The translations under genes were made by a program, and so were the position numbers. Under the pieces are notes generated by a model that did no database searches, was not told the origin of the DNA, and saw nothing but the letters and a program-made list of their open reading frames with translations. Below, in pieces: positions 26,432 through 62,121 of a stretch of 64,000 nucleotides of DNA (positions are counted from its first letter, which is position 1; every line of letters begins with the position of its first letter). Source of the DNA: Squalus acanthias (taxonomy: Eukaryota); contig CM059440.1 in assembly GCA_030390025.1 (NCBI GenBank), positions 52,080,001 to 52,144,000 on the forward strand, read 5' to 3'.

Positions 26432-29400
26432 CCAGACAGAGTAAAAGAGCTAGGAAGGTAGTGCAGGAGTCCCCTGGGTCCATCTCCCTCTCCAACAGAT
26501 TTTCCGTTTTGGATACTGCTGGGGGAGATGGTTTCTCAGGGGAATGCAGCAAGAGCCAAGTCCGTGGCACTATGAGTGGCTCAGCTGCACAGGAGGGGAG
26601 GAAAAGAGTGGGAGGGCAATAGTGATAGGGGATTCTATTGTAAGGGGAACAGGTAGATGTTTCTGTGGCCGCAGACGTGACTCCAGGATGGTATGTTGCC
26701 TCCCTGGTGCCAGGGTCAAGGATGTCACTGAGCGGCAGCAGGACCTTCTGAAGGGGGATGGTGAACAGCCAGAGGTTGTGGTCCATATCAGTACCAACGA
26801 CATAGGTAGAAAGAGGGACGAGGTTCTGCAAGCAGAATATAGGGAGCTAGGAAATAAATTAAAAAGCAGGACCTCAAAGGTAGTAATCTCAGGATTACTC
26901 CCAGTGCCACGTGCTAGCGAGAGCAGAAATAGGAGAATAGAGCAGATGAATGCATGACTGGAGAGATGGTGTAGGAGGGAGGGATTTAAATTCCTGAGGC
27001 ATTGGGACCGATTCTGGGGAAGGCGGGACCTGTACAAGCTGGACGAATTACACCTCGGCAGAACCAGGACCAATATCCTCGCAGGGGGGTTTGCTAGTGC
27101 TGTTGGGAATGATTTAACCTAGTTTGTCAGGGGGCTGGGAACCTAAGTGTGGGCCCAGAATGGAGAGAAACAAAGCTGGTAGTGCAAGTTAGAAAAGTAG
27201 TCAGCAAAACTAGTAGGGAGCAGAAACAAAGGCCAACAGTAAAGAGGGTCAAAGTGCAGAAAAATATTAAACAGGCAAAGTTGAAGGCACTTTATCTAAA
27301 TGCACGTAGCATTCGCAACAAGGTGGATGAAATTAATGGCACTAATAGAAGTAAATAATATATGATGTCATTGCCATTACAGAGACATGGCTTCAGGGTA
27401 ACCAAAGCTGGGAACTGAATGTTCCAGGGTGCTCAACATTTAGGAAGGACAGACAAAAAGGAAAAGGAGGTGGCGTAGCGCTGTTAATAAGGGATGAGAT
27501 CGGTACGGTAGAGATAAAAGATCTTGGCTTGGCAGATCGTGATGTAGAACTGGATTTAGTTTGGGTGGAGCTAAGAAACAGCAAAGGGCGGAAAACATTG
27601 GTGGGAGTTGTGTATCGGCCACCAAACAGTAGTGGTAATGTAGGGCACAGTATCAATCCAGAAATTAGAAGTGCATGTAACAAGGGCAATACAGTAATCA
27701 TGGGGGACATTAATCTACATATGGACTGGGCAAATCAAATTACCACTAATGGTGTGGAGGACGAATTCTTGGAATGCATGCGAGATGGTTTCCTGGATCA
27801 GTATGTAGAGGAACCAACCATGGAACAGGCTATTCTGGATCTGGTACTGTGTAATGAGAAAGGGCTAATCAATAATCTTGTGGTAAAGGGGCCTTTAGGG
27901 ACAAGTGACCATAATATGATTGAATTTTACATTAATTTTGAGAGTGATGTAGTCCAATCTGAAACTAAGGTCGTCAATCTGAACAGAGGAAACTACAAGG
28001 GTATGAGGGACAAGTTGGCCATGGTAGATTGGGAGACTACACTAAAAGGTATGAAGGTGGACATACAATGGCTAACATTCAAGGAAATAATGCATAATTT
28101 GCAACAAATATATATTCCTCTCGGGCATAAAAACCCAAAAGCAAAAGTGATCCAACCATGGCTAACAAAAGAAATTAAAGCTAGTATTAAGTCAAAGGAG
28201 GAAGCTTATAAAGTTGCCAGAAAAAGCGGTCAGCCTGAGGATTGGGATCTTTTTAGAAATCAGCAAAGGGGGACCAAGAAATTGATAAAGAAAGGGAAAA
28301 TGGAATATGAGCACAAACTAGCAAAAAAACAGATTGTGAAAGCTTCTATAGGTATGTGAAAAGGAAAAGACTGGCGAAGGTAAATGTAGGTCCTTTACAA
28401 TCAGAGATGGGAGAATTTATAATGGGGAATGAGGAAATGGCTGAGAAATTAAATAAATACTTTGTTTCTGTCTTCACGGAGGAAGACACAAAAAACCTCC
28501 CAGAAATACGAGAAAACCAAGGGTGTGACGAGAATGAGGAACTTAAAGAAATTATTATTAGTAAAAAAACAGTACTAGCAAAATTAATGGGACTAAAAGT
28601 CGATAAATCCCAAAGACCGGATGACCTACATCCTAGGGTTTTGAAAGAGGTGGCCATTGGGATAGTGGACGCATTGGTTATCATCTTCCAAAATTCTATA
28701 GATTCTGGAACGGTTCCTGCAGATTGGAGGATAGCAAATGTAACCCCGCTATTTAAGAAAGGAGGGAGAGAGAAAATGGGGAATTACAGACCTGTTAGCC
28801 TCACATCAGTAGTTGGGAAAATGCTGGAATCTATTACAAAGGATGCAATAACTGGGCACTTAGAAACTATTTGGGCAGAGTCAACATGGATTTATGAAAG
28901 GGAAATCCTGTTTAACAAACCTATTGGAGTTCTTTGAGGATGTAACTAGTGGAGTAGACAAAGGGGAACCGGTAGATGTGGTGTATTTGGATATTCAGAA
29001 GGTCTTCGATAAAGTCCCACACAAGGGATTGGTGAAGAAAATTAGGGCACATGGAATTGGGGGTAATATACTAGCATGGATTGAGAATTGGTTAACAGAC
29101 AGAAAACAAAGAGTAGGGATAACCGAGTCGTTTTCAGGATGGCAGGCAGTGACTAGTGGGGTACCGCAAGGATCGGTGCTTGGGCCCCAGCTATTCACAA
29201 TCTATATCAATGATTTGGATGAGGGGACTAAATGTCACATTTCCAAATTTGCTGATAATACAAAGCTAGGTGGCAGTGTCAGTTGTGAAGAGGATGTGAA
29301 GAGGCTTCAAGGGGATCTCGACAGGCTCAGTGAGTGGGCGAGAATATGGCAGATGGAATATAATGTGGATAAATGTGAAGTTATCCACTTTGGTAGAAAA

Positions 29401-37200: not shown

Positions 37201-37825
37201 TGTGGGGATTGGGGCAGGGACAGGGTGCTGGATTTGGATGATCAGCCATGATCGTATTGAATGGCGGAGCAGGCTCGACGGGCCGAATGGCCTACTCCTG
37301 CTCCTAGATTCTATGGGGTAAAAATTCAGTTGGTTGCGCCTCCCGTTAGCGCCTTAAATGGGCGCTAATGGGGCGTTAAGGCGCTAACGCCCGGGCGCGG
37401 CGCTGTTTGCGCCGCTCGAGAACTTAACTTGAGATTGTGCGGCGGCGCTAAAACTTACCGCTGCGACCACCTGCGCGCGCAGATTGTGACGTCAGTCCGT
37501 GGTGCAACGCCGTTGGGGCGCCCCGGAGCGGAAATTGAGTGGCGCCCCCTGCCTTACCGCCTGGCGCTTCCAACGACCGGAAGACTGGAACGTTATCAAT
37601 CGGTCTGGGGCTGGGGGGGCGCTATTTAAAGGGGGCCTCTTCCTGTCTTTTTCTGTGGTCGACATTTATGCACCACTCGTTCTGAGAGAGAGAGAGAGAT
37701 TCGGAGAGAGAGAGAGAGAGACTTCTACATTGACTCAACGCTTTGTGAGGTAGTTTTGCCTAGTTCATCCTAACTTTGCTGCTACTTTCGTTGCTGTACC
37801 TCATTACTTTTCTGGCAAAGAGAAG

Positions 37826-38986
37826 ATGGGGGCTGCAATGATTGGGGGCGTCGTCCTGCTCCAGCTCAATCGGAGCAGAGTGAGACGCAGACAGAGAGTG
37901 GCAATGATGGCCAGACGGAGGAGGCCCATCAGGCGCATGTACAGGAGAGCTTACCCTCCCAGGGTATATCGTGAACAGCTCTCCTACATCCACATGTCCG
38001 AGGAGCTGTGTTTGCGAAGGCTGCGATTCAGCAAGGAGGTGGTCACTGAGCTCTGCCACCTGCTGCAGCCAGATCTGCAGCCTCAGCTGAGGTCCAGGAC
38101 GTCTCTGTCGGTGGCAGTGAAGGTCACAGTGGCCTTGAACTTCTACGCCACTGGCTCATTCCAAGCTGCTGTTGGGGACCTCGCCAATATCTCCCAGTTT
38201 GCGGTGCATCGCTGCATCCGGCAGGTCACCAATGCCCTCTTCACAAGGAGACGAGACTTCATCTCCTTCCCTATGACCCCAGACAAGCAGCATGACCGTG
38301 CTATGGGCTTTGCGAGGGTAGCGGGCTTCCCCATGGTGCAGGGCGCCATTGACTGCACGCATGTGGCTTTGCGTGCTCCGCGAGAGAATGCAGAGGAGTT
38401 CCGGAACAGAAAAGGGTTCCATTCCTTGAATGTGCAGTTGGTCTGTGACCACAGACAGGTGATTCTCGCTGTCAATGCCCACTATCCGGGCAGCTGCCAT
38501 GATGCTTTCATCCTGCGCCAGAGTACTGTGGCAGAAATTTTCGAGGCACCGCATCAGCCAGTCGGTTGGCTTCTGGGGGACAAGGGGTACGCATTGAGCA
38601 CCTGGCTGATGACACCGCTCCGTGCGCCAAACACCCCTGCTGAGCTGCGGTACCAGGAAAGCCAACAAGCAACGAGGAACATTATTGAGCGCACAATCGG
38701 CGTGCTCAAACAACGATTCCGCTGTCTGGACCATTCCGGAGGAGCCCTGCAGTACTCGCCTGAGCAAGTTTCCAAATTCGTAGTGGTGTGCTGCATGTTG
38801 CACAACATGGCAATCCTCAGGACGCAGCCAATGCCACCAGGCCTTGCAGCACCACAAGAGGAGGAGGAGGAAGAGGAGGAACTGGCCGAGGACGATGATC
38901 AGCAGCAGCACCAAGGCAGGAGGGCGGCCCACAATGGTCAAACTGCAAGGGCCGTCCGTCAACGACTAATAGCAAGCCGCTTCTAG
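37826..38986 (+). CDS. Harbinger DDE transposase (HARBI1-like, 386 aa)
   Basis: Motifs LNFYATGSFQ, GAIDCTH, NRKGFHSLNVQLVCD, GSCHDAFIL, LLGDKGY, IERTIGVLKQRFRCL; uninterrupted ORF. Confidence 0.93.
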   Translation: MGAAMIGGVVLLQLNRSRVRRRQRVAMMARRRRPIRRMYRRAYPPRVYREQLSYIHMSEELCLRRLRFSKEVVTELCHLLQPDLQPQLRSRTSLSVAVKVTVALNFYATGSFQAAVGDLANISQFAVHRCIRQVTNALFTRRRDFISFPMTPDKQHDRAMGFARVAGFPMVQGAIDCTHVALRAPRENAEEFRNRKGFHSLNVQLVCDHRQVILAVNAHYPGSCHDAFILRQSTVAEIFEAPHQPVGWLLGDKGYALSTWLMTPLRAPNTPAELRYQESQQATRNIIERTIGVLKQRFRCLDHSGGALQYSPEQVSKFVVVCCMLHNMAILRTQPMPPGLAAPQEEEEEEEELAEDDDQQQHQGRRAAHNGQTARAVRQRLIASRF

Positions 38987-45343: not shown

Positions 45344-48300
45344 TCACGTAATGCCGTGTTCATTTTGTTTCTCTCCATTTGCCAGTGAAACACATTTCTT
45401 GCACACGGCTATGACTAGAATTAAAATTATAAATTCAATAGCAAGGACAGTGACTGCAAGCATCCAGAGATTTCTTGTGAGAATGTGATCAGTTTTCATT
45501 TCTGGTGAAAAAAAGAAAGAAAACTATTGATCATTACGGCAGTGGTTTCAGTGCTGGTTTGGTCTTCTATGCTAATAGTTTAAAATATAACCACCATAAA
45601 AGCACGACCGCATTTAAGAATGCTTAAAGAAACTGATAGCCAAGTTCCGCACCCATGAGGACGGCCTCAATAGGGATCTCGGGTTCATGTCACGCTACAG
45701 AACGTGACTCAACATCGTTGTCTGTCTTCCCGTTTTTAAAAAAAAACACAAAAAAAAGTTAAAAGCTTAACTGCAGACGGCAGCATTTGACACGTTGGAC
45801 CCCCTGTGACCCACCTCATTGTCTTAGCTGTACTCTGCTGTGTCTTTGATGTAATGCCTCCCTAACAGATTGTATCTCTGCAGACACATTGTTCTCTGTC
45901 TATATATACTGTGTAATCCATTCCCTCACTGTACCTTTACCTGAAGAAGGAGCGGAGCTCCGAAAGCTCGTAATTTTAAATAAAACTGTTGGACTATAAC
46001 CTGGTGTTGTGCGACTTTGCATTTAAGAATGTAATTGACGTAATAAAGACTCACTACGCACTTGAACATAAAGCAAGACTTTAATCAACTTGTAACAAAA
46101 CATGGAGGTCTAGTTAGCAGTCACTAGCTTCCTGTTTCCAGATTGTCTCTGCCCAAGGTGGGCCCATGCCTGAGTATTTATACTCCCTGGACGGCGCCCC
46201 AGCTGGCCACCCAGTAGTACTTCCTGAGTTGTTACTTGTGATTTATGACATTCTTCCTCCCTAAAAGGTTTGGAAGTCCAGTCTTCCTTTAACGGACTAG
46301 GCGGACCAGAAATAGCCGCAGACGTTTAGCTCTCTGCTTGTGACTGGAAGGCACGTCTCCCCGGACCGTGTCCTGGTCCCTGGGTCGCTTGGCCTGTACC
46401 GGTAAGTCAGTAGAGTCCGTGTCATCGTGATCATCCTGTGGAGGACTGGGAATATCATGACTCCGGGTGCGGGTCCCCACAGGTGCTGAGCTGGCCTCAT
46501 CCCGGGTCGTGGCTGGAGATTGTCCGGCGTCCTGGTTTCGGGTGGCCATCCTACGGGGAGCGTCCAGCTCCCCGAGTTGATCCGGTAGCGTTGCCGGCAG
46601 ATCCCCCGATGTCCCAGGCGGGGCGTCATTTTCATAGGGGTGCGGAGTGTTGATATCATTGTCGGGGGATCCTTCATCATTCGGGCCCGTGTGACTGGTT
46701 GGGCAGGGAGCCAGATCTCGGAGCGAGACGGTGGTCTCCCGGCCATCAGGGTACCGTACGTGCGCATACGTGGGATTTACCTCCGTTAACTCCACCTCGT
46801 CAACGAGAGGGTCGTTTTTGGCAGACCGGACGAACCTCCGGAGTAGTACCGGGCCTGGAGCCACCAACCATGACGGTAGAGACGTCCCATGTGTAGAGCG
46901 ACGCCGGAATTTGAAGAATCGCTCATGAGGCGTGACATTAGTAGATGTGGAGAGAAGAGACCTGACAGAGTGTAACGCGTCGGGGAGCACCGTTTCCCAC
47001 TGCTGGTCCGGCAGGTTGCGTGACCTTAGTGCCAGACGGACAGCGTTCCAGATGATGGCATTGTATCGTTCAACCTGTCCGTTACCGATTGGGTGATATG
47101 GTGTCGTCCTACTTGAGGCGATTCCCCGTTGGGAGAGATAACTTTTAAGTTCACTCGACATAAAGGAGGGACCCCGATCAGTGTGGATAAAATTGGCCGT
47201 CCCGCAAAGGGAAAAGACCTGATCGAGGCATTTAATTACCGTAGAGGTAAGCATATTAGGGCAGGGGAAGGCGAAGGGAGAGCGTGAATACTCGTCCACC
47301 ATCGTAAGTAGGTAGGTGTTCCTTGTCGACGAAGGCAATGGCCCTTTAAAGTCTATGCTGAGCCTCTGCATAGGCTGCATTGCATGTATGAGTAAGCAAT
47401 CTGATGGGCGAAAGAATTGTGGTTTCAATTCTGCACAAATCCTACAGGAGGAGCATGTTTTCTTTACGTCCTCGGTTGAAAATGGTAGATTTTTGGAGCG
47501 CACAAAGTGCAACATGCGGGTCACACCAGGATGGCATAAGTCCATATGCAAATCCGCCAGAGTCGACGTTGACATGGAGGAGCAAAATGCCCGTGTGAAG
47601 GTATCTGGGGCCACGTTCTGTTTGCCGGGTCGGTAACAGATAGTATATCCAAAGGCAGCCAGCTCCATCCTCCAGAGTTGAATTTTATTATTTTTGATTT
47701 TCGTGCGCCTCCGGTTATCCAACATGAAGGCCACAGAGCGCTGGTCAGTTATAAGCGTAAAATGACGCCGAGCAAGAAAATGACCCCATTGGCGTACAGC
47801 CTCGATGATGGCCGTAGCCTCCTTCTCGACGGGGGGGTAATGGAGCTCGCTACCCTGCAAGGTTCTGGATAGGAATGCCACGGGTCGGCCACCTTGATTC
47901 AAGGTAGCGGAGATCGCCACCTCCGATGCATCGCATTCGACCACAAAAGGAAGATTTTCATCAATGGAGCGAAGCGTGGCTTTCTCCAGCTGTCGTTTGA
48001 GGAGGTTGAAGGCAGAAATAGCCGTAGCTTCCAATGGAAAAAACTTCGCATGGAGCAGGGGCTGTATTTTATCGGAGAAGTGTGGTATCCATTTTGCGTA
48101 ATAAGCAAACATACCAAGTGCCCGACGAAGAGAGCCGAGGTTCGTCGGGGGAGGGAGCTCCTGAAGTGGACGAAGTCGCTCTGGGTCCGGTTTAATAACA
48201 CCGTTGCCCACCCAGTAGCCAAGAATGTTCACCGATGGCACCGACTTCACCGATTTGGATTCGTTTAACGTTAAGTGGCGACGGCGGAGTACGTCAAAAA

Positions 48301-51300
48301 ATCTCTGAAGATTGGCGTCATGCTCCTTTTGATCATGGCCGGCAATAGTGATATTGTCTAAATACGGAAAGGTATCCGTCAAGTTCTCTTGCCGGACTAG
48401 GCCATCCATGGCCCGTTGGAAGACGGCCACCCCATTGGTGACCCCGAATGGAAGGCGGCGAAACTGGAAAAGCCGACCATTGGCCTCAAAGGCCGTATAC
48501 TTCTTGTCGGAGTCTTGCAGTGGCACCTGATGGTACGCGCTTTTTAAATCGAAGGTCGAGAATACCTTGTATTTGGCAAGGTTGTTGACCATGTCATCTA
48601 TGCGTGGCAGCGGGTAGGCATCCAGATCGGTATATAGATTAATAGTCTGCGAATAATCGATACACAGACGTTTTTTATGTTGTTTTAAGGGATTCCTCAC
48701 GATGACGACCTGAGTCCGCCAGGGAGATGAACATGGCTCGATAATACCGTCGACTAAAAGGCGAGAGATTTCCGCCTCAATAAACGCTCGATCGTCTTGG
48801 CTAAAGCGCCGCGATTTGGTGGCTATGGGTTTACAGCGGGGGGGAAGATTGGCAAACAGGGAGGGTTCACCGAGTAAGGCCGCCGAGAGTGCACAAAACG
48901 GCACCTTAGAAATGGTAAGCTCCGGCCTTGACCCTCCAAACTCAAAAGTGATCTTCTTGTGCTGCTTCTGGAAGTCCTGTCCCAGAAGCACATCGCTGCA
49001 TAAGTTTGCGAGTACTCCGAGCCGGGTGGAGAGATACGTGCGGCCGTTGAGGATGAGGTTGACCAGACAGAAGCCAGAAGAATTGGTGGTCAGAGTCGTC
49101 AGAGCCATTGCAATCTCCCTGTCCGAGGGATAAATGTGCAGTTTTAACCTGTTGACAGCCCGCTTACTAATGAAGCTGTCAGAGCTGCAGGAGTCGATTA
49201 GCGCGCTTAGAGTGTGCCCATTTACTGAAACCTTCGTGGCTGCATGGGACAAACTTTGGGGAAAAACAGCCGTGATGGGAGGAGGGGCAATTTTCCCTTC
49301 GGCAACTGTAGCCTTAACAGTAGTTCTTGGGGGAGGAGCAGCTCCATAGATAGCAGCTGTGAAGCTAACAGGAGCTCTCGACCGGTATACTTTAGAGGAG
49401 CGGCCTTTCTTGTTAGCAAAGGCCCGTGACTGGCATACCTTGGAAAAGTGTCCTTTCTTGCTGCAATGATTGCAGGTCACATTACGAGCCGGGCAAAATT
49501 TTCTGTGATGGCACGCCCCTCCACAAAAGAAACACTTTCTTCCTGATTGCCAGGATGCTGCTAGGGCGGGGTCGTCATCAGCTAAGGCCTCTAGGGTAGG
49601 GTCGTCGTCTGTTAGAGTAGAGTCAACATCAGTGGGGGCATCTGCCCGAGACCTACCGAAAGACTCATTAAAGGAGATAGCCGCCGCCCGTGCACGTGGT
49701 GGGAGATAAGTGTCTGCATTTTTCTTGGCCAAGTCCAAGGAACACGCCTGGTCATAAGCAGCCCGTAAATTGAGGGTTTTATTTTCCAGCAGGCGCTGAC
49801 GTATAAAAGGGGACGCGATTCCATTGATAAAGGAATCGCGGATTAGTTCCTCTTGATACTGTTCAGCTGAAACTGCTTTAAGGTTACAATCCTTGCTGAG
49901 CCTGCGAAGTTTCTGGAGAAATTCATCGAGTGATTCCCCAGGCTGCTGCCGAGTTGTGGCCAGTAGGTGTCGAGCAAAGATTTCATTTGGGGACTTGACA
50001 TATAGCTGCTGTAAGATTTCGATAGCAGTGTCATAGTCTATACAGTCCTCAATATAATCATACACATGAGGAGACACGTAGTTGATAAGCATTCGTAACT
50101 TATTAGGGACATCCGCCCCACATTCTTCAAGAAAGTTGCTAAAGGTACGAAACCAATGCTTCCATACCTTTGCTGCCGCAGGTGCATTCGGGTCCAGGTC
50201 GAGACGAGCGGGTCTAAGGAGTTTTTCCATGATGGATCAGTTTCTTGCCCAAGTTCCCTTCTGTGGTTCGAGTTGCAGCTGGTTGTTCCGAATCACCCAA
50301 AGCGTGGAGACGATATCAAGTTGATTAAATTGACGTAATAAAGACTCACTACGCACTTGAACATAAAGCAAGGCTTTAATCAACTTGTAACAAAACATGG
50401 AGGTCTAGTTAGCAGTCACTAGCTTCCTGTTTCCAGATTGTCTCTGCCCAAGGTGGGCCCATGCCTGAGTATTTATACTCCCTGGACGGCGCCCCAGCTG
50501 GCCGCCCAGTAGTACTTCCTGAGTTGTTACTTGCGATTTATGACAGTAATTGTATGGTGAAAGTATTTTTAAACGTTGGATAACACAGTAGTAGCCTAAA
50601 CCAGAAACAAAGTGCATTGATACAGCGCATTTAATGTAGAAAAACATCCCAAGGTGCTTCACAGTAGCGTAATCTGCCCAAAAAAACACGTATTTATACA
50701 GCGCCTTTCACAACCCCAAAGCGCTTTACAGCCAATGAAGTACTTTAAGTGATCACTTTGGTCATGCAGGAAATGCAGCAGCCAATTTGTGCACAGCAAG
50801 CTCCCACAAACAGTAATTAGATAATGACCAGATAATGTGTTTATTTTAAAGTGATGTTGGTTGAAGGATAATAATAGTCAGGACACCGGGGAGAACTCCC
50901 CTGCTCTTCGTAATAGTTGAGAGGACGCACAACACCAGGTTATAGTCCAACAGTTTTATTTGAAATCACAAGCTTTCGGAGCTATCGATCGCCCCTTCCT
51001 CAGGTGAAGTAGTAAAGAAATACAGACTCGACAAAGCATATATAGATAGAGAACAATGCATGTGTACCTTACAATTGCAGACAACTAATAGTGCCATGGG
51101 ATCTTTTATGTCCACCTGAGAGAGCAGACGGTGCCTCGGTTTAACGTCTCATTTGAAAGGCGGCACCTCCGACAGTGCAGCACTCCCTCAGTACGGTGCT
51201 GGAGTGTCAGCCTAGATTTTTGTGCTCAAGTCTCTGGCGTTGGGCTTGAACCCACAACCTTCTCCCACCTGATGCAAGGCTGACACCTAAAGAGAGATAT

Positions 51301-55068: not shown

Positions 55069-58000
55069 AATAGAAGGGTAGTTATTTGTTGGACACGGGA
55101 GCTTCATGCACCGTGATTCATACGGATAGCCCTTTTGACTCACCGCTATCTACCAAGGTCCCATATACATTAGCGGGGTTTACGGGAAAAGAGCAGGCTG
55201 GCGCGTTCTCCATTCCGCTATCCATTCATTTAGGAGCACTCCACACCACGTGGAAGTGCATACTGATGAAATGGCAAGAGGGGGGTGGGAGAGGCATCCT
55301 CGGATCAGACCTCCTATCGGGGCACGGGATCCTCGTGGACCTCAGGAATCACTGTCTCTGGGGAGCTAAGGGTGGAAAAGGCGAGGTAGTGGTAATCCCG
55401 GGGAAGGAAGGTAAAGGGGCCCTGTGTACCATGAAGCCATCCGGAGGCTACGACCTCGGGCTTATGGTCGCGGATGTCCCAACGGACATGCAAACGTACG
55501 TGTCAGATAATATGCACGCGTTTGCAACCCACAAGCACGATTGTGGGAGGGTTACCGGGTTTGAGGTCAGCGTAGATGGGGACCCCATGACCCAGCCCCA
55601 AAAGCAGTATAACTTCCCCAAAGAAGCAGAACCCGATATGGAGACAGCAATGTCCTCCTTGGTGCAGCAGGGCGTGTTGAGGCCGATAGCCACACACGTG
55701 AACTCCCCATTATGGCCGGTTAGGAAGCCGGATAATTCGTGGAGGGCCACGGTGGACTACAGAGTCCTTAACAGTAACATTCCCGCCTGCGCGCCCACGG
55801 TAGCAGCAGTTGCTGACCTAATAGGGAGTATCCCAGCGTCCGCGACCACGTTCACGGTGCTGGATATCTCGAACAGTTTTTGGTCCATCCCGCTGCGGCG
55901 AGAGGACCAGTACAAGTTTGCCTTTACTTTCAAAGGACAACAGTACACATGGAACTGTCTGCCACAGGGTTTCCACAACAGCCCTAGTATTTTCCATCAG
56001 TGTATGGCAGGAAGTTTAAAGGAGTTTAGTCAGCCCAATCAGATAGTGCAGTACGTGGATGATTTGCTCCTATTTACGGACTCAAGGGAGGAGCATGGAC
56101 CACTGCTGGCCGAGTTATTGGAGCTGCTAGCGAGAAAGGGTTTTAAAGTGAACCCTAAGAAAGCACGTATCGGTCAGCAGGAAGTAAAATTCCTGGGGCT
56201 GACCATTCTCGCTGGGGAAAGAGCCATAGATAAGGCTAGGAGGGAGTCGGTGCAAGAGTTACCGATTCCCAACACCATAAGGGGTGTGAGGTCCTTTTTG
56301 GGACTGACCGGTTACTGCAGGGATTTTATCGAAGACTATGCGGCCACAGCGGCGCCGCTGCTCCGACTCCTCCATAAGGGAGTGGAGTGGTCTTGGGACG
56401 AGGGATGCCAGACAGCCTTCGAGAAGTTAAAAAGGGATTTGCAGACCGCGCCAGCTTTAGGGGCCATAGATGGGGGGAAGGAGTTTTTCCTGGAGGTAGC
56501 TGCCAGCGGAGACAGCTTGAGCGCTGTGCTGCTCCAAGAGCGCCACGGCAAGCTGAGGCCGGTTGTCTATTCGTCCAGGGTGTTAACGGATGTGGAGAGA
56601 AGTTTCTCCAATTGCGAAAGGCACCTTTTAGCCACGCATTGAGCTGTGAAAAGATCAGCGATCTTCACAGGGCTCTCTCCCATCACTCTCCTCACCCATC
56701 ACACACCAACTAAGATGCTTCTAGATGGGAGGATTAAAGATGGGACCGTAAGCAGCGTGCGGATTGCGCGCTGGACCCTTCTCCTTTCCCAGATGGATCT
56801 TAGAATTAAAGGTCTTTGCGAGCCCAGGCTTGCGGCCAATTTGGTATACCCCGGTACAGCCCACCAGTGTTCGGTGGAAGGGGTGTGGGAAGTCAACATT
56901 GGTTTGCGGGCCGGGATACATCCCACCGGGCGCGAAATTTATGTTGATGGTTCCAGCACAGTGTCCGCTGGCGAACGACTCACAGGGTGCGGAGTTTATG
57001 ACCCTGCGGCAAACCTTGCCCTGGCGATTAAGCTCCCCAGCACCATGAGCGCGCAGCAGGCTGAGCTGTCTGCGGTGGTGTACGTCGTTACCCACCCAGA
57101 AACTTTCCCAACCCCATACACGATTTGCTCGGACAGTATGTTCACATGCAATTCGTGTACGGAATACCTGGCCATTTGGTCCCGCCGTGGATACACCTCC
57201 GCGGACGGACGACCTTTAACGGTGAAGCCCTTGCTGGAAAAGATCCTAGCAGCAGTAAGGGAGGAAGGGGAGATTTTCATCCATAAGGTGAAGGCTCACT
57301 CCACCACAGAGCCCCGTGGGGAAGGCAACCAGCAGGCGGATGCGCTAGCCAGGGAGGGTGCCCGTAACGGCACTTTCTGGGACCCCTATGGGCCCAGACC
57401 CGTGGCAGCGATCCAAGGCAGGGACGGGAATTCCGGGAACACCAGGGTAGCATTGCCCCTAGACCTTAAGACCGTCCAGAACCAGGATCCCGCCCTAAAA
57501 GCAGTTCTCAGAACCCTTGCTGAGGGGAAGCAGGTAGAGGGTCCGTACAGTACGGCAACCCTCTCCGTTAAGGAAGGCATGCTGTTCCGCGAGGAGCAGT
57601 GGGTTGTGCCGCAGCAGCACAGGAGAGAATTCCTCCAGTTGGCTCATGAGGGACCGGGGGCAGGGCACCCCGGGCCCGAGGTTACCTGGCAACGGGTAGA
57701 GCAAGCGGGATGGTGGCCGGGGCTCAGGGAGCAGGTCCGCGAGTTCTGTGCAAGCTGTCTCGTGTGCGCTGCAAACAACCCAGACCCCCAGAAAAGGAAA
57801 GTGCCCATGGGGCACATCAGGAGGGTAGAGGGACCATGGCAGTCGATACAGATCGACTATATAGGGCCCCTGCCCACCACCCAGGGAGGCTATAAATACT
57901 GCCTCGTCTTGGTGGATGTGTTTTCCAAATGGGTGGAAGCCTTCCCCTGTAGAACAGCTACGGCACTGGGTACTGCAAAAATCTTGGAAGTGTTCTCGCG

Positions 58001-59518
58001 GTGGGGACTCCCCCGTTTTGTGGAGTCAGACCAGGGAGTCATTTCACCGGCCAGGTGATGCAGAACACCCTCATGCTTTTGGGCATTGAAGGGAAATGGC
58101 ACGTAGCGCACAATCCCCAGTCATCCGGGATTGTTGAACGCATGAACCGGACCCTGAAGGAGAAATTGAGGAAAGAGACTATGAACTCGCCCCAAAAATG
58201 GGCGGAGGTTCTGCCTTTAGTCCTCATGGGGGTCCGGGCCAGTCAGTCGAAAAGTACGGGGTATTCCCCGCACGAGGTGATGACTGGGAGGATCATGCGA
58301 ACCCCCACCCATGTGCTAGCGCCGGTGCTCACTGAGGGTCAGCTCCAAGAGGTAAGCAGGGACAAGTTCGTCCAGACCCTCTTGGAGTGCCTGAAGCAGG
58401 TTTATGAGCAGGCGGCTGGGAACATGGGAAGGCAGCATCAGGGCAATCGCCTGTTGCTGGAACCCCGCAAGAAGCGGGAGTGGGAAGTAGGAGACCAGGT
58501 CATGGTCAGAAACTACGCCAGAGTAGGGAGTCTGGAACCACTGTATATGGGACCCTACAGCATTGTAGATAAGGCGAGTCCCATGGTATACGCCGTAAAG
58601 GTACCTCGGCGCACTAAGTGGTTCCACGTAAATCAGTGCAAACTGTATAAGCTGGGCGCACAAGGGCCTACCACAGGGGCCAAACCTGTGAGTGGGGACT
58701 CACAGCCCCAGGTAGGGCCACAGGGCACACAGGCAGGCAAAGCAGCTTGCGTTAGGGGAGAGGACATCCTAGAAAAATGTAGGATCCTTTATTTGGGTTG
58801 GGAGTCAGATGAGGAAGAGCTCGAGGAGCTCAACGAAGATAGTGACACTAGCGAAGAGGAGCTGGAATCGGAGGACGAAAGGGTCGCCCCCGATTCAGGT
58901 ATAGGGGAGACAGGGGCTGCAGATAGAGATCCACAAAGGGTGGAGGCCGAAGCTGCAGGTCCCGAACGCAGGGGGGCGGAGCTAGGGGAGGCGGAGCCAG
59001 CCGCTGTGGTGGGACCACAGGGCGTGGCGATGGAAGCCTCAGAGCCCGAGCCGCCCGCCTTGAACGTCTTGCCCTCGAGGGAGGTAGGAACTGCGAGTGA
59101 AGGGCCGCCTACTGGGCCAAGTAGGGCGGTGCCACAAGCTGCAGATCCCGAGTTCAGGGAGGCGGAGTCAGGGGAGGCGGAGCCAGCGACTGTGGTGGGA
59201 CCACGGGTTGCCACGCTGGAAGTCTCGAAACCCGGTCCGTCAGTCCTGGAGTTCCTGCCCACGGGAGTTCTCCGTAGGTCAAGTCGGAAACCCCAGCCCA
59301 GAAAGATTTGGGTAAGTCCCCCATATGTCCCCAGACGTAAGTTCAAGGTCAAGGCAGCTCAGGGAGATCCCAGTCCCAGCGCAGCAGCGATAGGCTGCGG
59401 CAGATCAAAGGGGGGGGGGTCAATGCCCTCCCACCGTTGGGAGAAGCCTGCGGCAGCAACCGCAGAATTTGAGTGGGCCGCCCTGGGAACGGGCGGCACT
59501 GTACAGTTATTAAGATGA
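55069..59518 (+). pseudogene. pol of lokiretrovirus-like element 2 (PR-RT-tether-RNase H-IN), with one stop and one frameshift
   Basis: LLDTGAS; LDISNSFW..LPQGFHNSP..QYVDD; tether FFLEVAAS..LRPVVYSS; second RNase H IYVDGSS..AQQAEL..SDS..KVKAH..GNQQADALA; integrase HHCC, IQIDYIG, SDQG, ERMN. TGA at 56640-56642 (probable Trp); frameshift at about 58036. Confidence 0.92.
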
Positions 59519-59769
59519 GTGATATGTTTAGGATGAGTTTATAAGTTTGAGTTTATAGTTTTTAAATCAGGTTAAGTCGGTAGTTTAATTTTGTTAACAG
59601 GAAAAGCTAAAATGATGGGAGTTTTAGGATAGGAATAGTTAAAGTCTATCCAGCGCACATGTCTTCTTACGTGAGGCGAGGTCAGGGGACCCGCTCACCC
59701 TTCACAAAAGCCAGAGACTCTTGGGAGGCTGGCTACCTCATTCTATCTGATCACAGGAACCAAGGAAGG

Positions 59770-62121
59770 ATGGAACGAATTCTAGTATTGCTCGCGGCAA
59801 TCGGATGTGGATTGGCCTATCGAGGCCGCACCAAGGATGTCGTGGTGTTTGGATGCTCCGGGGACACGGCCCCCATCGCGATGGATGGGACCGGAAGGCG
59901 AGAGGCTGAGGAGACCACCACCTATTTCCACAAGGGAAGGTGGCCAGGATGGCTGGGAATGAATTCAACTGAGTATTCCAGTACATCGGGTTTTGCCTAC
60001 AAAGAGACTTCTTTAATGTGCCCCAAAGTGAGGATCATCGCACCCAGAGTCAGCGTCACCGTCGGCAAACGGATTTGTTTGACTTGTAATGGGAATGTCC
60101 CATTGAGCCGATGGTGGTGGCTACGAAAGCTGAGCAAAAACATGAGGAACTCTTCGGTCGAGTGGGAGCGACTGGGTAATAATACCCATCGGACAATTAC
60201 GGGGACAAACGGACAAGTGAGAGTCTGTTGGGACAAATGGTGGGAACCGGATGAGGGAATTTATGTATGTATGTGGGGGTCAAAGCACGTTTGCCCAAAA
60301 GGCATCTCCATATTTTTCATCAATCAATGGCAGGATAACGGACAGGGGATGAGGTGGGATGCGAGCACCAGGGGGTGCGGAGCCCCATACTCTCCGATCC
60401 CGGTAAATGCCACTGAACTCATTACGCGCCCACGCAAAGCCCCGCCCATGATTCCGGTGGTTCTAGCTAAGGAAGAAGGGTGCCCTAAAACCAGTAAGGG
60501 ACCCGGGGATGGTTTGGTACTGGTCCCCACAGACCAGATACTATTTCAGGGGGTACATTACGCGGTGGCCTCGGTGATTTTAAATCTCACCGAGGTGCGG
60601 TTACCAGAGTGGTGCCGCAAAAAGACGGAACAGTTATATCAGGTCCTGTTGACCAAGATGTTTAGACAATTTTATGAGTTCGATTTCGCGGAAATTGATA
60701 AAACAAGTTTGTACACCGCACCACATGAAGTTTTGGGTCAGGTGGGGAGGCAAAGAAGGGGTGTTGTGAACGACATGTTCACTGCTTTCAATACAGGTAC
60801 ATCTGTGGTCAACGCTCTAGACAGTGTGGAGCTGCAGACCCAGATTAATGGCTTAAAAACGCAATTAAAAAGCATTCTCACAGATGAAAATAAGGTGGTT
60901 GGGTCTGGGTTACACGAGGACCAGGCCATGACTCTCCATTTAAAAGAAATAATAGCTGAACTAGAGAAACATGCGCGTACGGTAAATGCCCTGATTAGGG
61001 AAGATCGGAATGCGTCCGATCAGGCTGCGCAGAATGAGGTGTGCGTGCTTTACGGGGCGTGGTTACTGGGCGAGGGCCGCAGTAATTTGGAGGATTTAAA
61101 ACAAGGTTTGGTCCCGTCCTGGATAAGTAACAAACACCTGCAGGCGCTCCACCCTTTTCAGAACGCATTAAACCCGTGCCAGCTCAGACTAGCTTCAGAA
61201 GCATACCCAGTCCCCGTGGACTGCGGACGATCAAACCATACCATCATGGGTATAGTATTACGTATGCCGGTTTTGGGCGACACAGCAAAGCCCGCCCCGG
61301 TGTACCGGGTAGAGAACATTGGTGTCATTCAGGGGGGAGCCCACATTCGCTATGCAGCGGTTCCACCTTACGTCATCCGCTGGGAGCAAACGATGACAGG
61401 TACAGATCTCTCTGGTTGTCGTGGCCGGGGAGCACACATAATACTGTGTCCCCAGCACTTGAATGCCTTTTTAACACCACAGTGCGGGTTCAGAACGGCT
61501 GGCGCCAAGCCAATGAATTGCACCATGGAGGCAATGGCACAAGATCATGTGCCTCCGCAGGTAGCATACATCGGGGGTGGAACATATTGTGTTACCACTG
61601 CAGCGCAACACTACCAACATGGAAACCGTAGCCGGTGTCCGGTGAGTGACAGCAGTTTCTGTTTTAAACCCAGGGCGGAAGTTCAAGTAGCACAACAGCG
61701 AATTGTCCCGATCCCTGAACCATCCACGGTTCATCTTACCGTAAAAGAGAACTTCACCGACCTGCAGCGATTTGTCACGCATTTCGGATACCTCATTCCC
61801 CCTCTCCCTGAACACCTCACCAAGCTTTTGAAAGCCGTCGCGGTATTGCAAAAACATTTTTACACCCTAGAACAAAAGACTGTCGAGATAGGGACAGAAA
61901 TTCTGGACATAGTAATTCCACCGTGGTGGAATCTGTTCACCAACATTGAAGTGCCTTCCTGGATTAGAATAGCCTCCCACATTTTAGTTGTATGCCAAGT
62001 GTTTATTGTGATATACTTATTGGTCGTGCATTGTAAGAGAGGCAAACGCCTCACCAAGAACGAAAACACGGGAGAGTGGCGAGAACGTTACGGGCGCGTG
62101 CACGATGAAAGCACCGCGTAA
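59770..62121 (+). CDS. Intact envelope glycoprotein (F-like class I fusion type) with putative N-terminal Ig-like domain
   Basis: Acceptor-like tctgatcacAG at 59755-59756, then signal peptide MERILVLLAAIGCGLA; furin site RQRR at 60748-60759, then candidate fusion peptide and heptad repeat; Cys-rich region; second helix; TM IASHILVVCQVFIVIYLLVV; basic tail. Confidence 0.88.
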   Translation: MERILVLLAAIGCGLAYRGRTKDVVVFGCSGDTAPIAMDGTGRREAEETTTYFHKGRWPGWLGMNSTEYSSTSGFAYKETSLMCPKVRIIAPRVSVTVGKRICLTCNGNVPLSRWWWLRKLSKNMRNSSVEWERLGNNTHRTITGTNGQVRVCWDKWWEPDEGIYVCMWGSKHVCPKGISIFFINQWQDNGQGMRWDASTRGCGAPYSPIPVNATELITRPRKAPPMIPVVLAKEEGCPKTSKGPGDGLVLVPTDQILFQGVHYAVASVILNLTEVRLPEWCRKKTEQLYQVLLTKMFRQFYEFDFAEIDKTSLYTAPHEVLGQVGRQRRGVVNDMFTAFNTGTSVVNALDSVELQTQINGLKTQLKSILTDENKVVGSGLHEDQAMTLHLKEIIAELEKHARTVNALIREDRNASDQAAQNEVCVLYGAWLLGEGRSNLEDLKQGLVPSWISNKHLQALHPFQNALNPCQLRLASEAYPVPVDCGRSNHTIMGIVLRMPVLGDTAKPAPVYRVENIGVIQGGAHIRYAAVPPYVIRWEQTMTGTDLSGCRGRGAHIILCPQHLNAFLTPQCGFRTAGAKPMNCTMEAMAQDHVPPQVAYIGGGTYCVTTAAQHYQHGNRSRCPVSDSSFCFKPRAEVQVAQQRIVPIPEPSTVHLTVKENFTDLQRFVTHFGYLIPPLPEHLTKLLKAVAVLQKHFYTLEQKTVEIGTEILDIVIPPWWNLFTNIEVPSWIRIASHILVVCQVFIVIYLLVVHCKRGKRLTKNENTGEWRERYGRVHDESTA

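Follow-up and report, generated by a model that had tools for sequence, protein, structure and literature searches.

Self-priming among Ty3/gypsy elements is tied to the Tf1/sushi chromoviruses in the accessible parts of the literature covered here (PMC3601003, PMC6317226, PMC6934838, PMC4600332, PMC10085805, PMC11117352, PMC6238403, PMC7175516, PMC5341516, PMC12801592, PMC5445492, PMC8220671 and PMC11042837). Tf1 and Tf2 from Schizosaccharomyces pombe, Tj1 and the Tf1/sushi elements share a primer site complementary to their own long terminal repeat (LTR) instead of a tRNA. For Tf1, the available text describes pairing of the first 11 bases with the primer site and RNase H cleavage after base 11 (PMC7175516), with about half of the cDNA ending in a single-stranded copy of the primer site that anneals to homologous sequence (PMC11042837). 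[quoted passage not shown] The fungal copia element GalEa likewise lacks a tRNA site and has a ‘Conserved Hairpin Site’ at the primer-site position, as far as the accessible text goes (PMC5445492). A search of openly accessible papers returned no description of a self-priming clade of animal non-chromoviruses.

The window analyzed here, a 64-kb stretch of Squalus acanthias DNA, contains a complete element on the minus strand (46036–50545) flanked by a 5-bp target-site duplication, ATTAC (left, 50546–50550; right, 46031–46035; both minus strand). The 5′ LTR (50331–50545, minus strand) and 3′ LTR (46036–46250, minus strand) each span 215 bp, run from TG to CA and differ at three positions. Between them lie a single open gag–protease–reverse transcriptase (RT)–RNase H–integrase frame of 1,313 amino acids (46289–50230, minus strand) and a polypurine tract (46251–46262, minus strand). 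The order of Pfam domains behind gag (protease, RT, RNase H, integrase) is that of gypsy elements, and the best PDB match of the polyprotein is Ty3-G Gag-Pol (E value 1e-54). With TG...CA LTRs, a polypurine tract and a target duplication within 4–6 bp, the element is a Ty3/gypsy LTR retrotransposon. The polyprotein had no Pfam match to Chromo or SH3_Tf2-1. Its double zinc knuckle presumably recalls Mag-type Gag, and the repeat adjoining the element has what we take to be a resemblance to the tail of a cartilaginous-fish SINE. Elsewhere in the window, a retrovirus-like element (55074–62121, plus strand) encodes an RT, a tether that resembles a degenerate RNase H, then a second RNase H, an integrase and an SH3 domain; its pol is disrupted by a stop plus a change of frame, behind it lies an 836-amino-acid frame without a Pfam match, and its RT groups with three similar loci of the same genome in the RT–RNase H tree. 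The window also holds a DDE_Tnp_4 transposase-like frame (37754–38986, plus strand) and a LINE endonuclease fragment (27355–28359, plus strand).

Directly after the 5′ LTR, a single spacer A (50330, minus strand) is followed by TTTAATCAACTTG (50329–50317, minus strand), the predicted primer-binding site. This segment is the exact reverse complement of CAAGTTGATTAAA (50387–50375, minus strand) within the same LTR, 45 nt away, and TGG is absent behind the LTR. The LTR segment, here termed the arm, is the predicted self-primer, and the cut is predicted to fall at its 3′ end, just ahead of GCC. A sequence-only reading of the window had described a 13-bp self-complement of the LTR in place of a tRNA site, ATTAAA within the paired segment and a TATA box about 80 nt upstream. 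All three descriptions hold: the match is exact over 50317–50329 and 50375–50387, the arm ends in ATTAAA and a TATA-like box, TATAAATA (50477–50470, minus strand), lies 83 nt from its end to the arm, a candidate promoter at a position not common to most relatives. A complement of at least 13 nt to the post-LTR sequence arose in 1 of 20,000 mononucleotide shuffles of the LTR (offsets 0–5). The 81-nt hairpin segment folds at a predicted −20.4 kcal/mol (z −3.9), a stability reached by 0 of 200 shuffles; for a wider segment of 161 nt, z is just −1.7. The 3′ LTR contains the arm as well (46080–46092, minus strand), and this copy could likewise pair with the primer site.

Searching the 3.7-Gb genome with the LTR and leader returned 1,349 candidates, of which 40 were scored, all 98–100% identical. 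With more than 1,300 near-identical candidates, the clade has recently been very active in this genome. The perfect pair is kept in 29 of the 30 best-scoring copies, the closest among the 1,349 candidates. Target sites often end in C or AC (left flanks of L001–L030), to which the flank in the query may contribute. A motif search for other families of the clade in the same genome gave 14 matches against 5 in the control, none of them near gag, and a diverged Gag query matched only the family of the window element.

Among 7,997 scored candidates, 745 were homologues of the window polyprotein, the best 120 at 48–66% identity; those with organism names come from crustaceans, cnidarians and a tunicate. 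No relatives were found in viral contigs. DNA of relatives was taken from 80 metagenome loci and 13 plus 3 new contigs of metagenome-assembled genomes (MAGs), and the relatives with selected junctions share roughly 40–70% protein identity with the window element. Sixteen of these loci (L111–L123 and L188–L190) are eukaryotic retrotransposons inside GTDB bacterial MAG contigs, most likely host contamination. In an unselected set of 38 gag starts with upstream sequence, the window included, 24 have a perfect complement of at least 11 nt positioned 0–2 nt after a CA. Among the 14 that fail, L042, L061, L075/L076, L083 and L088 show a duplex that is mismatched or accompanied by damage to the LTR end; in L047 a 12-nt arm lies at the opposite contig end, as judged by eye, and the remainder look truncated or decayed.

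For a finer comparison, 27 junctions were chosen by eye, mostly one per family, with near-duplicates among them. The sequence-only reading had named covariation of the two arms across relatives as a check, and the pairing is conserved: 25 of 27 junctions pair with their own LTR over 11–18 bp, compared with 16 of 702 cross-family comparisons that reach a complement of at least 11 nt. Duplex positions 1–13 are Watson–Crick paired in 26–27 of the 27 junctions, positions 14–16 exceed the expectation from base composition (p 0.002–0.003) and positions 17–20 are at chance. Only one of 432 cells at positions 1–16 is a G–U pair. Across 22 aligned junctions, both sides change in 13 of 16 pairs, a count that overstates independent events because the families are related; the covariation score was matched by none of 500 shuffles, and sliding the register lowers the paired fraction from 93% to 31–49%. 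The 27 junctions contain 24 different 13-nt primer sites, and in 25 of the 27 the site begins 1 nt from the LTR end. None of the 27 has a tRNA-type TGG, the mark near the 5′ LTR of gypsy elements primed by a tRNA 3′ end, whereas three outgroup gypsy elements have TGG and a self-complement of just 5–7 nt. The pairing is thus common to the whole clade. Its inner edge is fixed, with A–A at positions 1–2 in every junction and then mostly RCC; a small RCCT...AGGY helix adjoins this edge in 15 of 27, and the predicted hairpins have loops of 21–79 nt. The arm also shows sequence conservation beyond pairing (G at position 10 in 24 of 27 junctions, T at position 8 in 23–24), and position 23, upstream of the arm, is a purine in 23 of 27.

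A tree of RT–RNase H segments with 39 rows united the 30 rows from the clade in a single group (100/100); five loci whose segment was short or missing were left out, and the outgroups were tRNA-primed gypsy and retrovirus-like elements only. As chromovirus references from the same genome, SH3_Tf2-1 matches were rejected as retrovirus-like or devoid of RT, and 16 chromodomain loci were set aside since no polyprotein match lay within ~1.5 kb. Instead of YxDD, the window frame carries the RT motif YLDN (residue 623). Of 121 clade proteins, 90 have YxDN, 24 have YxDD and seven match neither; YxDN prevails although the frames are intact and the copies young. This motif was not found in the accessible parts of the literature searched, and the same material, including the supplements of PMC8556966, PMC6238403 and PMC3587641, yielded no name for the clade and no reference sequences of the named animal gypsy clades Mag, CsRN1, Barthez, MolGy and Cigr. 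No clade was named in the ESM Atlas.

Compared with the described systems, the clade appears to work like Tf1/sushi elements, and its duplex is similar in size to the 11 nt given for Tf1 in the available text (PMC7175516, PMC10085805 and PMC4600332). The likeness would be one of mechanism; two features of the Tf1/sushi group, the chromodomain and the RNA fold, were looked for and not found. Unlike Tf1/sushi elements, the clade has no chromodomain, either in the window polyprotein or in the precomputed domains of the 120 homologues listed. It shows no sign of the three-duplex ‘pretzel’ of Tf1 and has a short, simple hairpin instead: in a crude test over 27 junctions, pairing between the 25 nt behind the primer site and the loop scored 6.4 versus 6.6 in shuffles, and pairing of the U5 end scored 4.9 versus 4.3. 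Further differences from Tf1/sushi are the fixed AAA|RCC inner edge, often with a poly(A) hexamer at its end, the predominance of YxDN in RT and LTRs of roughly 130–300 bp. The plant predictions (PMC6317226) use the same criterion, but Tcn1 is a plant chromovirus and TAR has the copia domain order, whereas the present clade is animal and lacks a chromodomain. GalEa (PMC5445492) has its two 9-bp arms, conserved in sequence, downstream of the LTR; here, one arm sits inside the LTR and its sequence covaries, and both the downstream arms and the copia order are absent from the window element.

A compensated change was traced within Squalus acanthias itself. Starting from a variant in a contig, we followed an older subfamily whose LTR is ~94% identical. 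Among its 59 rows, 24 loci have the arm and the site altered together, giving C–G on both sides; 10 others combine T in the arm with G in the site as a wobble, and one has a mismatch. The wobble loci were considered as G–U intermediates and rejected: 6 of 7 older-subfamily copies with a 3′ LTR carry C there, so the wobble is mostly decay after insertion. CpG decay in this subfamily looks one-sided: nine loci show C to T in the arm and none shows the corresponding G to A in the site, despite the two contexts being reverse complements.

Self-priming in some form is very probable for this clade, supported by the covariation, the compensated subfamily, the absence of TGG and rearranged copies that run in register, described below. 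We also hold it likely, if with less assurance, that the primer is the arm copy in the 5′ LTR, cut at its 3′ end (AAA|RCC); the stable local hairpin, the Tf1 precedent and a synthesis stop in one rearranged copy favor this copy. From the pairing, its covariation, the fixed inner edge and the missing tRNA site, we infer the following course. The transcript would fold into a simple hairpin in which the primer site pairs with the 13–16-nt LTR arm. A cut at the arm 3′ end, probably made by the RNase H of the element by analogy to Tf1, would free a 3′ end facing into U5; RNase H motifs are invariant in 45 aligned clade proteins. RT would then copy the spacer A, U5 and a short stretch back to the cut, and the strong-stop DNA would be transferred to the 3′ LTR, at the stretch that matches it. 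Later, plus-strand synthesis would copy the primer and so rewrite the primer site, by which arm and site would stay matched.

Where the transcript begins bears on what this primer would look like. A Tf1-like start at the outer edge of the duplex strikes us as nearly an even call, leaning slightly against. A sub-case of priming by the 5′ copy, proposed by the sequence-only reading, would instead place the arm inside R: in the window family, transcription would start ~30 nt below the TATA at 50477 and the primer would be a capped RNA of ~70 nt. We regard this as doubtful. It is consistent with a canonical TATAAATA that precedes the arm start by 90 nt and persists in 49 of 50 copies inspected (a count of little weight, as these copies are 91–100% alike), and with the lack of any TATA 25–35 nt before the arm, which leaves the upstream box as the only good one in this family. 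In addition, duplexes reach 17–19 bp in some families, so that the RNA can extend past 13 nt. Among relatives, however, a TATA at that distance occurs in only 2 of 28 families (p 0.58), and 4 of 28 have one 41–47 nt before the arm 3′ end (p 0.012 for an interval picked after inspection, 0.06 for a wider one), from which the start would fall at the outer duplex edge. Overall, a TATA-like box lies within 130 nt in 10 of the 28 families. An initiator-like TCAKTY also peaks at duplex position 13 (mean 4.0 of 6, elsewhere at most 3.2; a post hoc observation), the L059 LTR has 55 nt from its start to the arm end and no copy was found in which run-through stops ~60 nt upstream. The internal arm thus keeps some plausibility for the window family, on the strength of one TATA, with mixed signals from relatives.

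The accompanying idea, equally doubtful for the window family, is that pairing keeps the polyadenylation machinery from recognizing the 5′ ATTAAA. Fifteen of the 27 arms end in or at A(A/T)TAAA. In the other 12, this hexamer is absent, and five families have it unpaired in the loop; masking is therefore not the clade-wide explanation, though it may operate in some families. A poly(A) signal so near the cap is poorly used anyway, which also counts against masking. Retroposed copies with poly(A) tails, sought for mapping the poly(A) site, gave no matches. Five loci (L050, L188, L099, L106 and L047) have a pyrimidine tract and YAG upstream of the arm in the LTR that resemble a 3′ splice site and could give a spliced, gag-only RNA, inconsistently across families; as a reading of the T-rich stretch before the arm, a splice acceptor was rejected, with 6 of 27 junctions conforming to a simple rule at scattered positions.

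Because the primer would be copied during plus-strand synthesis, we looked for copies in which the primer site is extended by the complement of LTR sequence lying upstream of the arm. The search gave four loci representing three events, each with TG...CA ends and a 5-bp duplication and each running from the primer site into the complement of the arm and U3 in exact register. The in-register start was the search criterion and hence selected for. In C2 (duplication TGTTT), the LTR and the A are followed by an inversion of the 3′ LTR that begins at the arm end, takes in U3 and the polypurine tract and reaches 126 nt past the LTR start, after which the normal strand continues to an intact 3′ LTR. 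C36 (duplication CCCCT), present twice in a tandem unit, starts as C2 does, with inverted segments templated by the 3′ LTR arm copy; its inversion extends more than 1,400 nt beyond the LTR, and two further switches occur at homologies of 9–12 nt. C25 (duplication CGCAC) belongs to the older subfamily and is a solo LTR interrupted exactly at the arm end. Its insert consists of a T, 17 nt that complement the very end of U5, and 102 nt of pol in antisense orientation; the LTR resumes at (A)GCC. The first piece of this insert is what the first minus-strand bases from a primer ending in AAA would be expected to be, and the resumption lies, within one base, where a cut template would end. This (A)GCC stop was not selected for and comes from one event; no second stop at GCC or chimeric LTR starting at the cut was found besides C25. 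The clean ends and duplications fit rearrangement before integration, and the three copies look like snapshots of the priming step; template switching in host DNA repair or replication could produce similar junctions.

These copies bear on whether the arm of the 3′ LTR, rather than that of the 5′ LTR, serves as primer. In that case, the RNA 3′ end would be cut at AAA|GCC and anneal to the primer site, closing the genome to a circle or linking two genomes, and the primer would be trimmed to 13–16 nt during copying of U3. In two of the three events, the sequence goes on beyond the LTR start to the polypurine tract and pol, which counts against the 5′ copy and would follow from the 3′ copy without an extra jump: the strands of C2 and C36 run unbroken through the arm, U3, the polypurine tract and 126 or more than 1,400 nt of internal sequence, as if a primer still attached to the genome were copied, and C25 likewise continues through all of U3. 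The invariant AAA at the inner edge is also in keeping with such a cut. We nevertheless consider the 3′ copy unlikely. If transcribed, the stable local hairpin at the 5′ end would be the first to form; the stop at (A)GCC in C25 fits a cut 5′ template; and the Tf1 model (PMC11042837) allows the same product through erroneous annealing of a single-stranded primer-site end to the 3′ arm.

Still less probable is a purely regulatory or structural hairpin, acting in poly(A) occlusion, packaging or gag translation, with priming by something else. The canonical hexamer lies under the duplex in 15 of 27 families, and gag starts 1–86 nt further on, directly behind the duplex in many families, as such a role might suggest. 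The 3′ strand, however, lies at a constant distance from the LTR end, 1 nt in 25 of 27 junctions, which is where a primer site belongs; no alternative primer site was seen; and a regulatory helix would tolerate G–U pairs, of which positions 1–16 hold the single case counted above. Binding of the site to an internal tRNA fragment or another host RNA, with the LTR match secondary, has a precedent in the half-tRNA priming of Ty1/copia lineages (PMC6317226, accessible part) and is nonetheless highly improbable, since the 24 different sites match their own LTR and rarely that of another family, the single-base change of the older subfamily is mirrored in the LTR and Rfam returned no match to any RNA family or ribozyme.

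We conclude that the pairing is real and conserved by covariation and that it is probably a self-primer, which makes the sequence-only proposal of a variant self-priming mechanism well supported in its core and weaker in its internal-arm and masking parts. The element would then exemplify a known mechanism in variant form, within a clade that appears to be separate. A bolder reading, which we put forward tentatively and with the balance against it, is that a large animal clade of Ty3/gypsy elements evolved self-priming independently of Tf1/sushi, with an internal piece that carries the poly(A) signal as primer, possibly the 3′ LTR copy. In an equally tentative extension, the genome would prime with its own tail, the rearranged insertions would be fossil records of primers and YxDN might be adaptive. 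A clade without a chromodomain spread across several animal phyla would represent a second origin of self-priming with a much simpler RNA structure. The question of whether hairpin priming is ancestral or was acquired more than once is touched by this, as are escape from the silencing of primer sites by tRNA fragments and annotation tools that need a tRNA site to be present. The rearranged copies, in turn, suggest a route to reading reverse-transcription intermediates from genome sequence alone.
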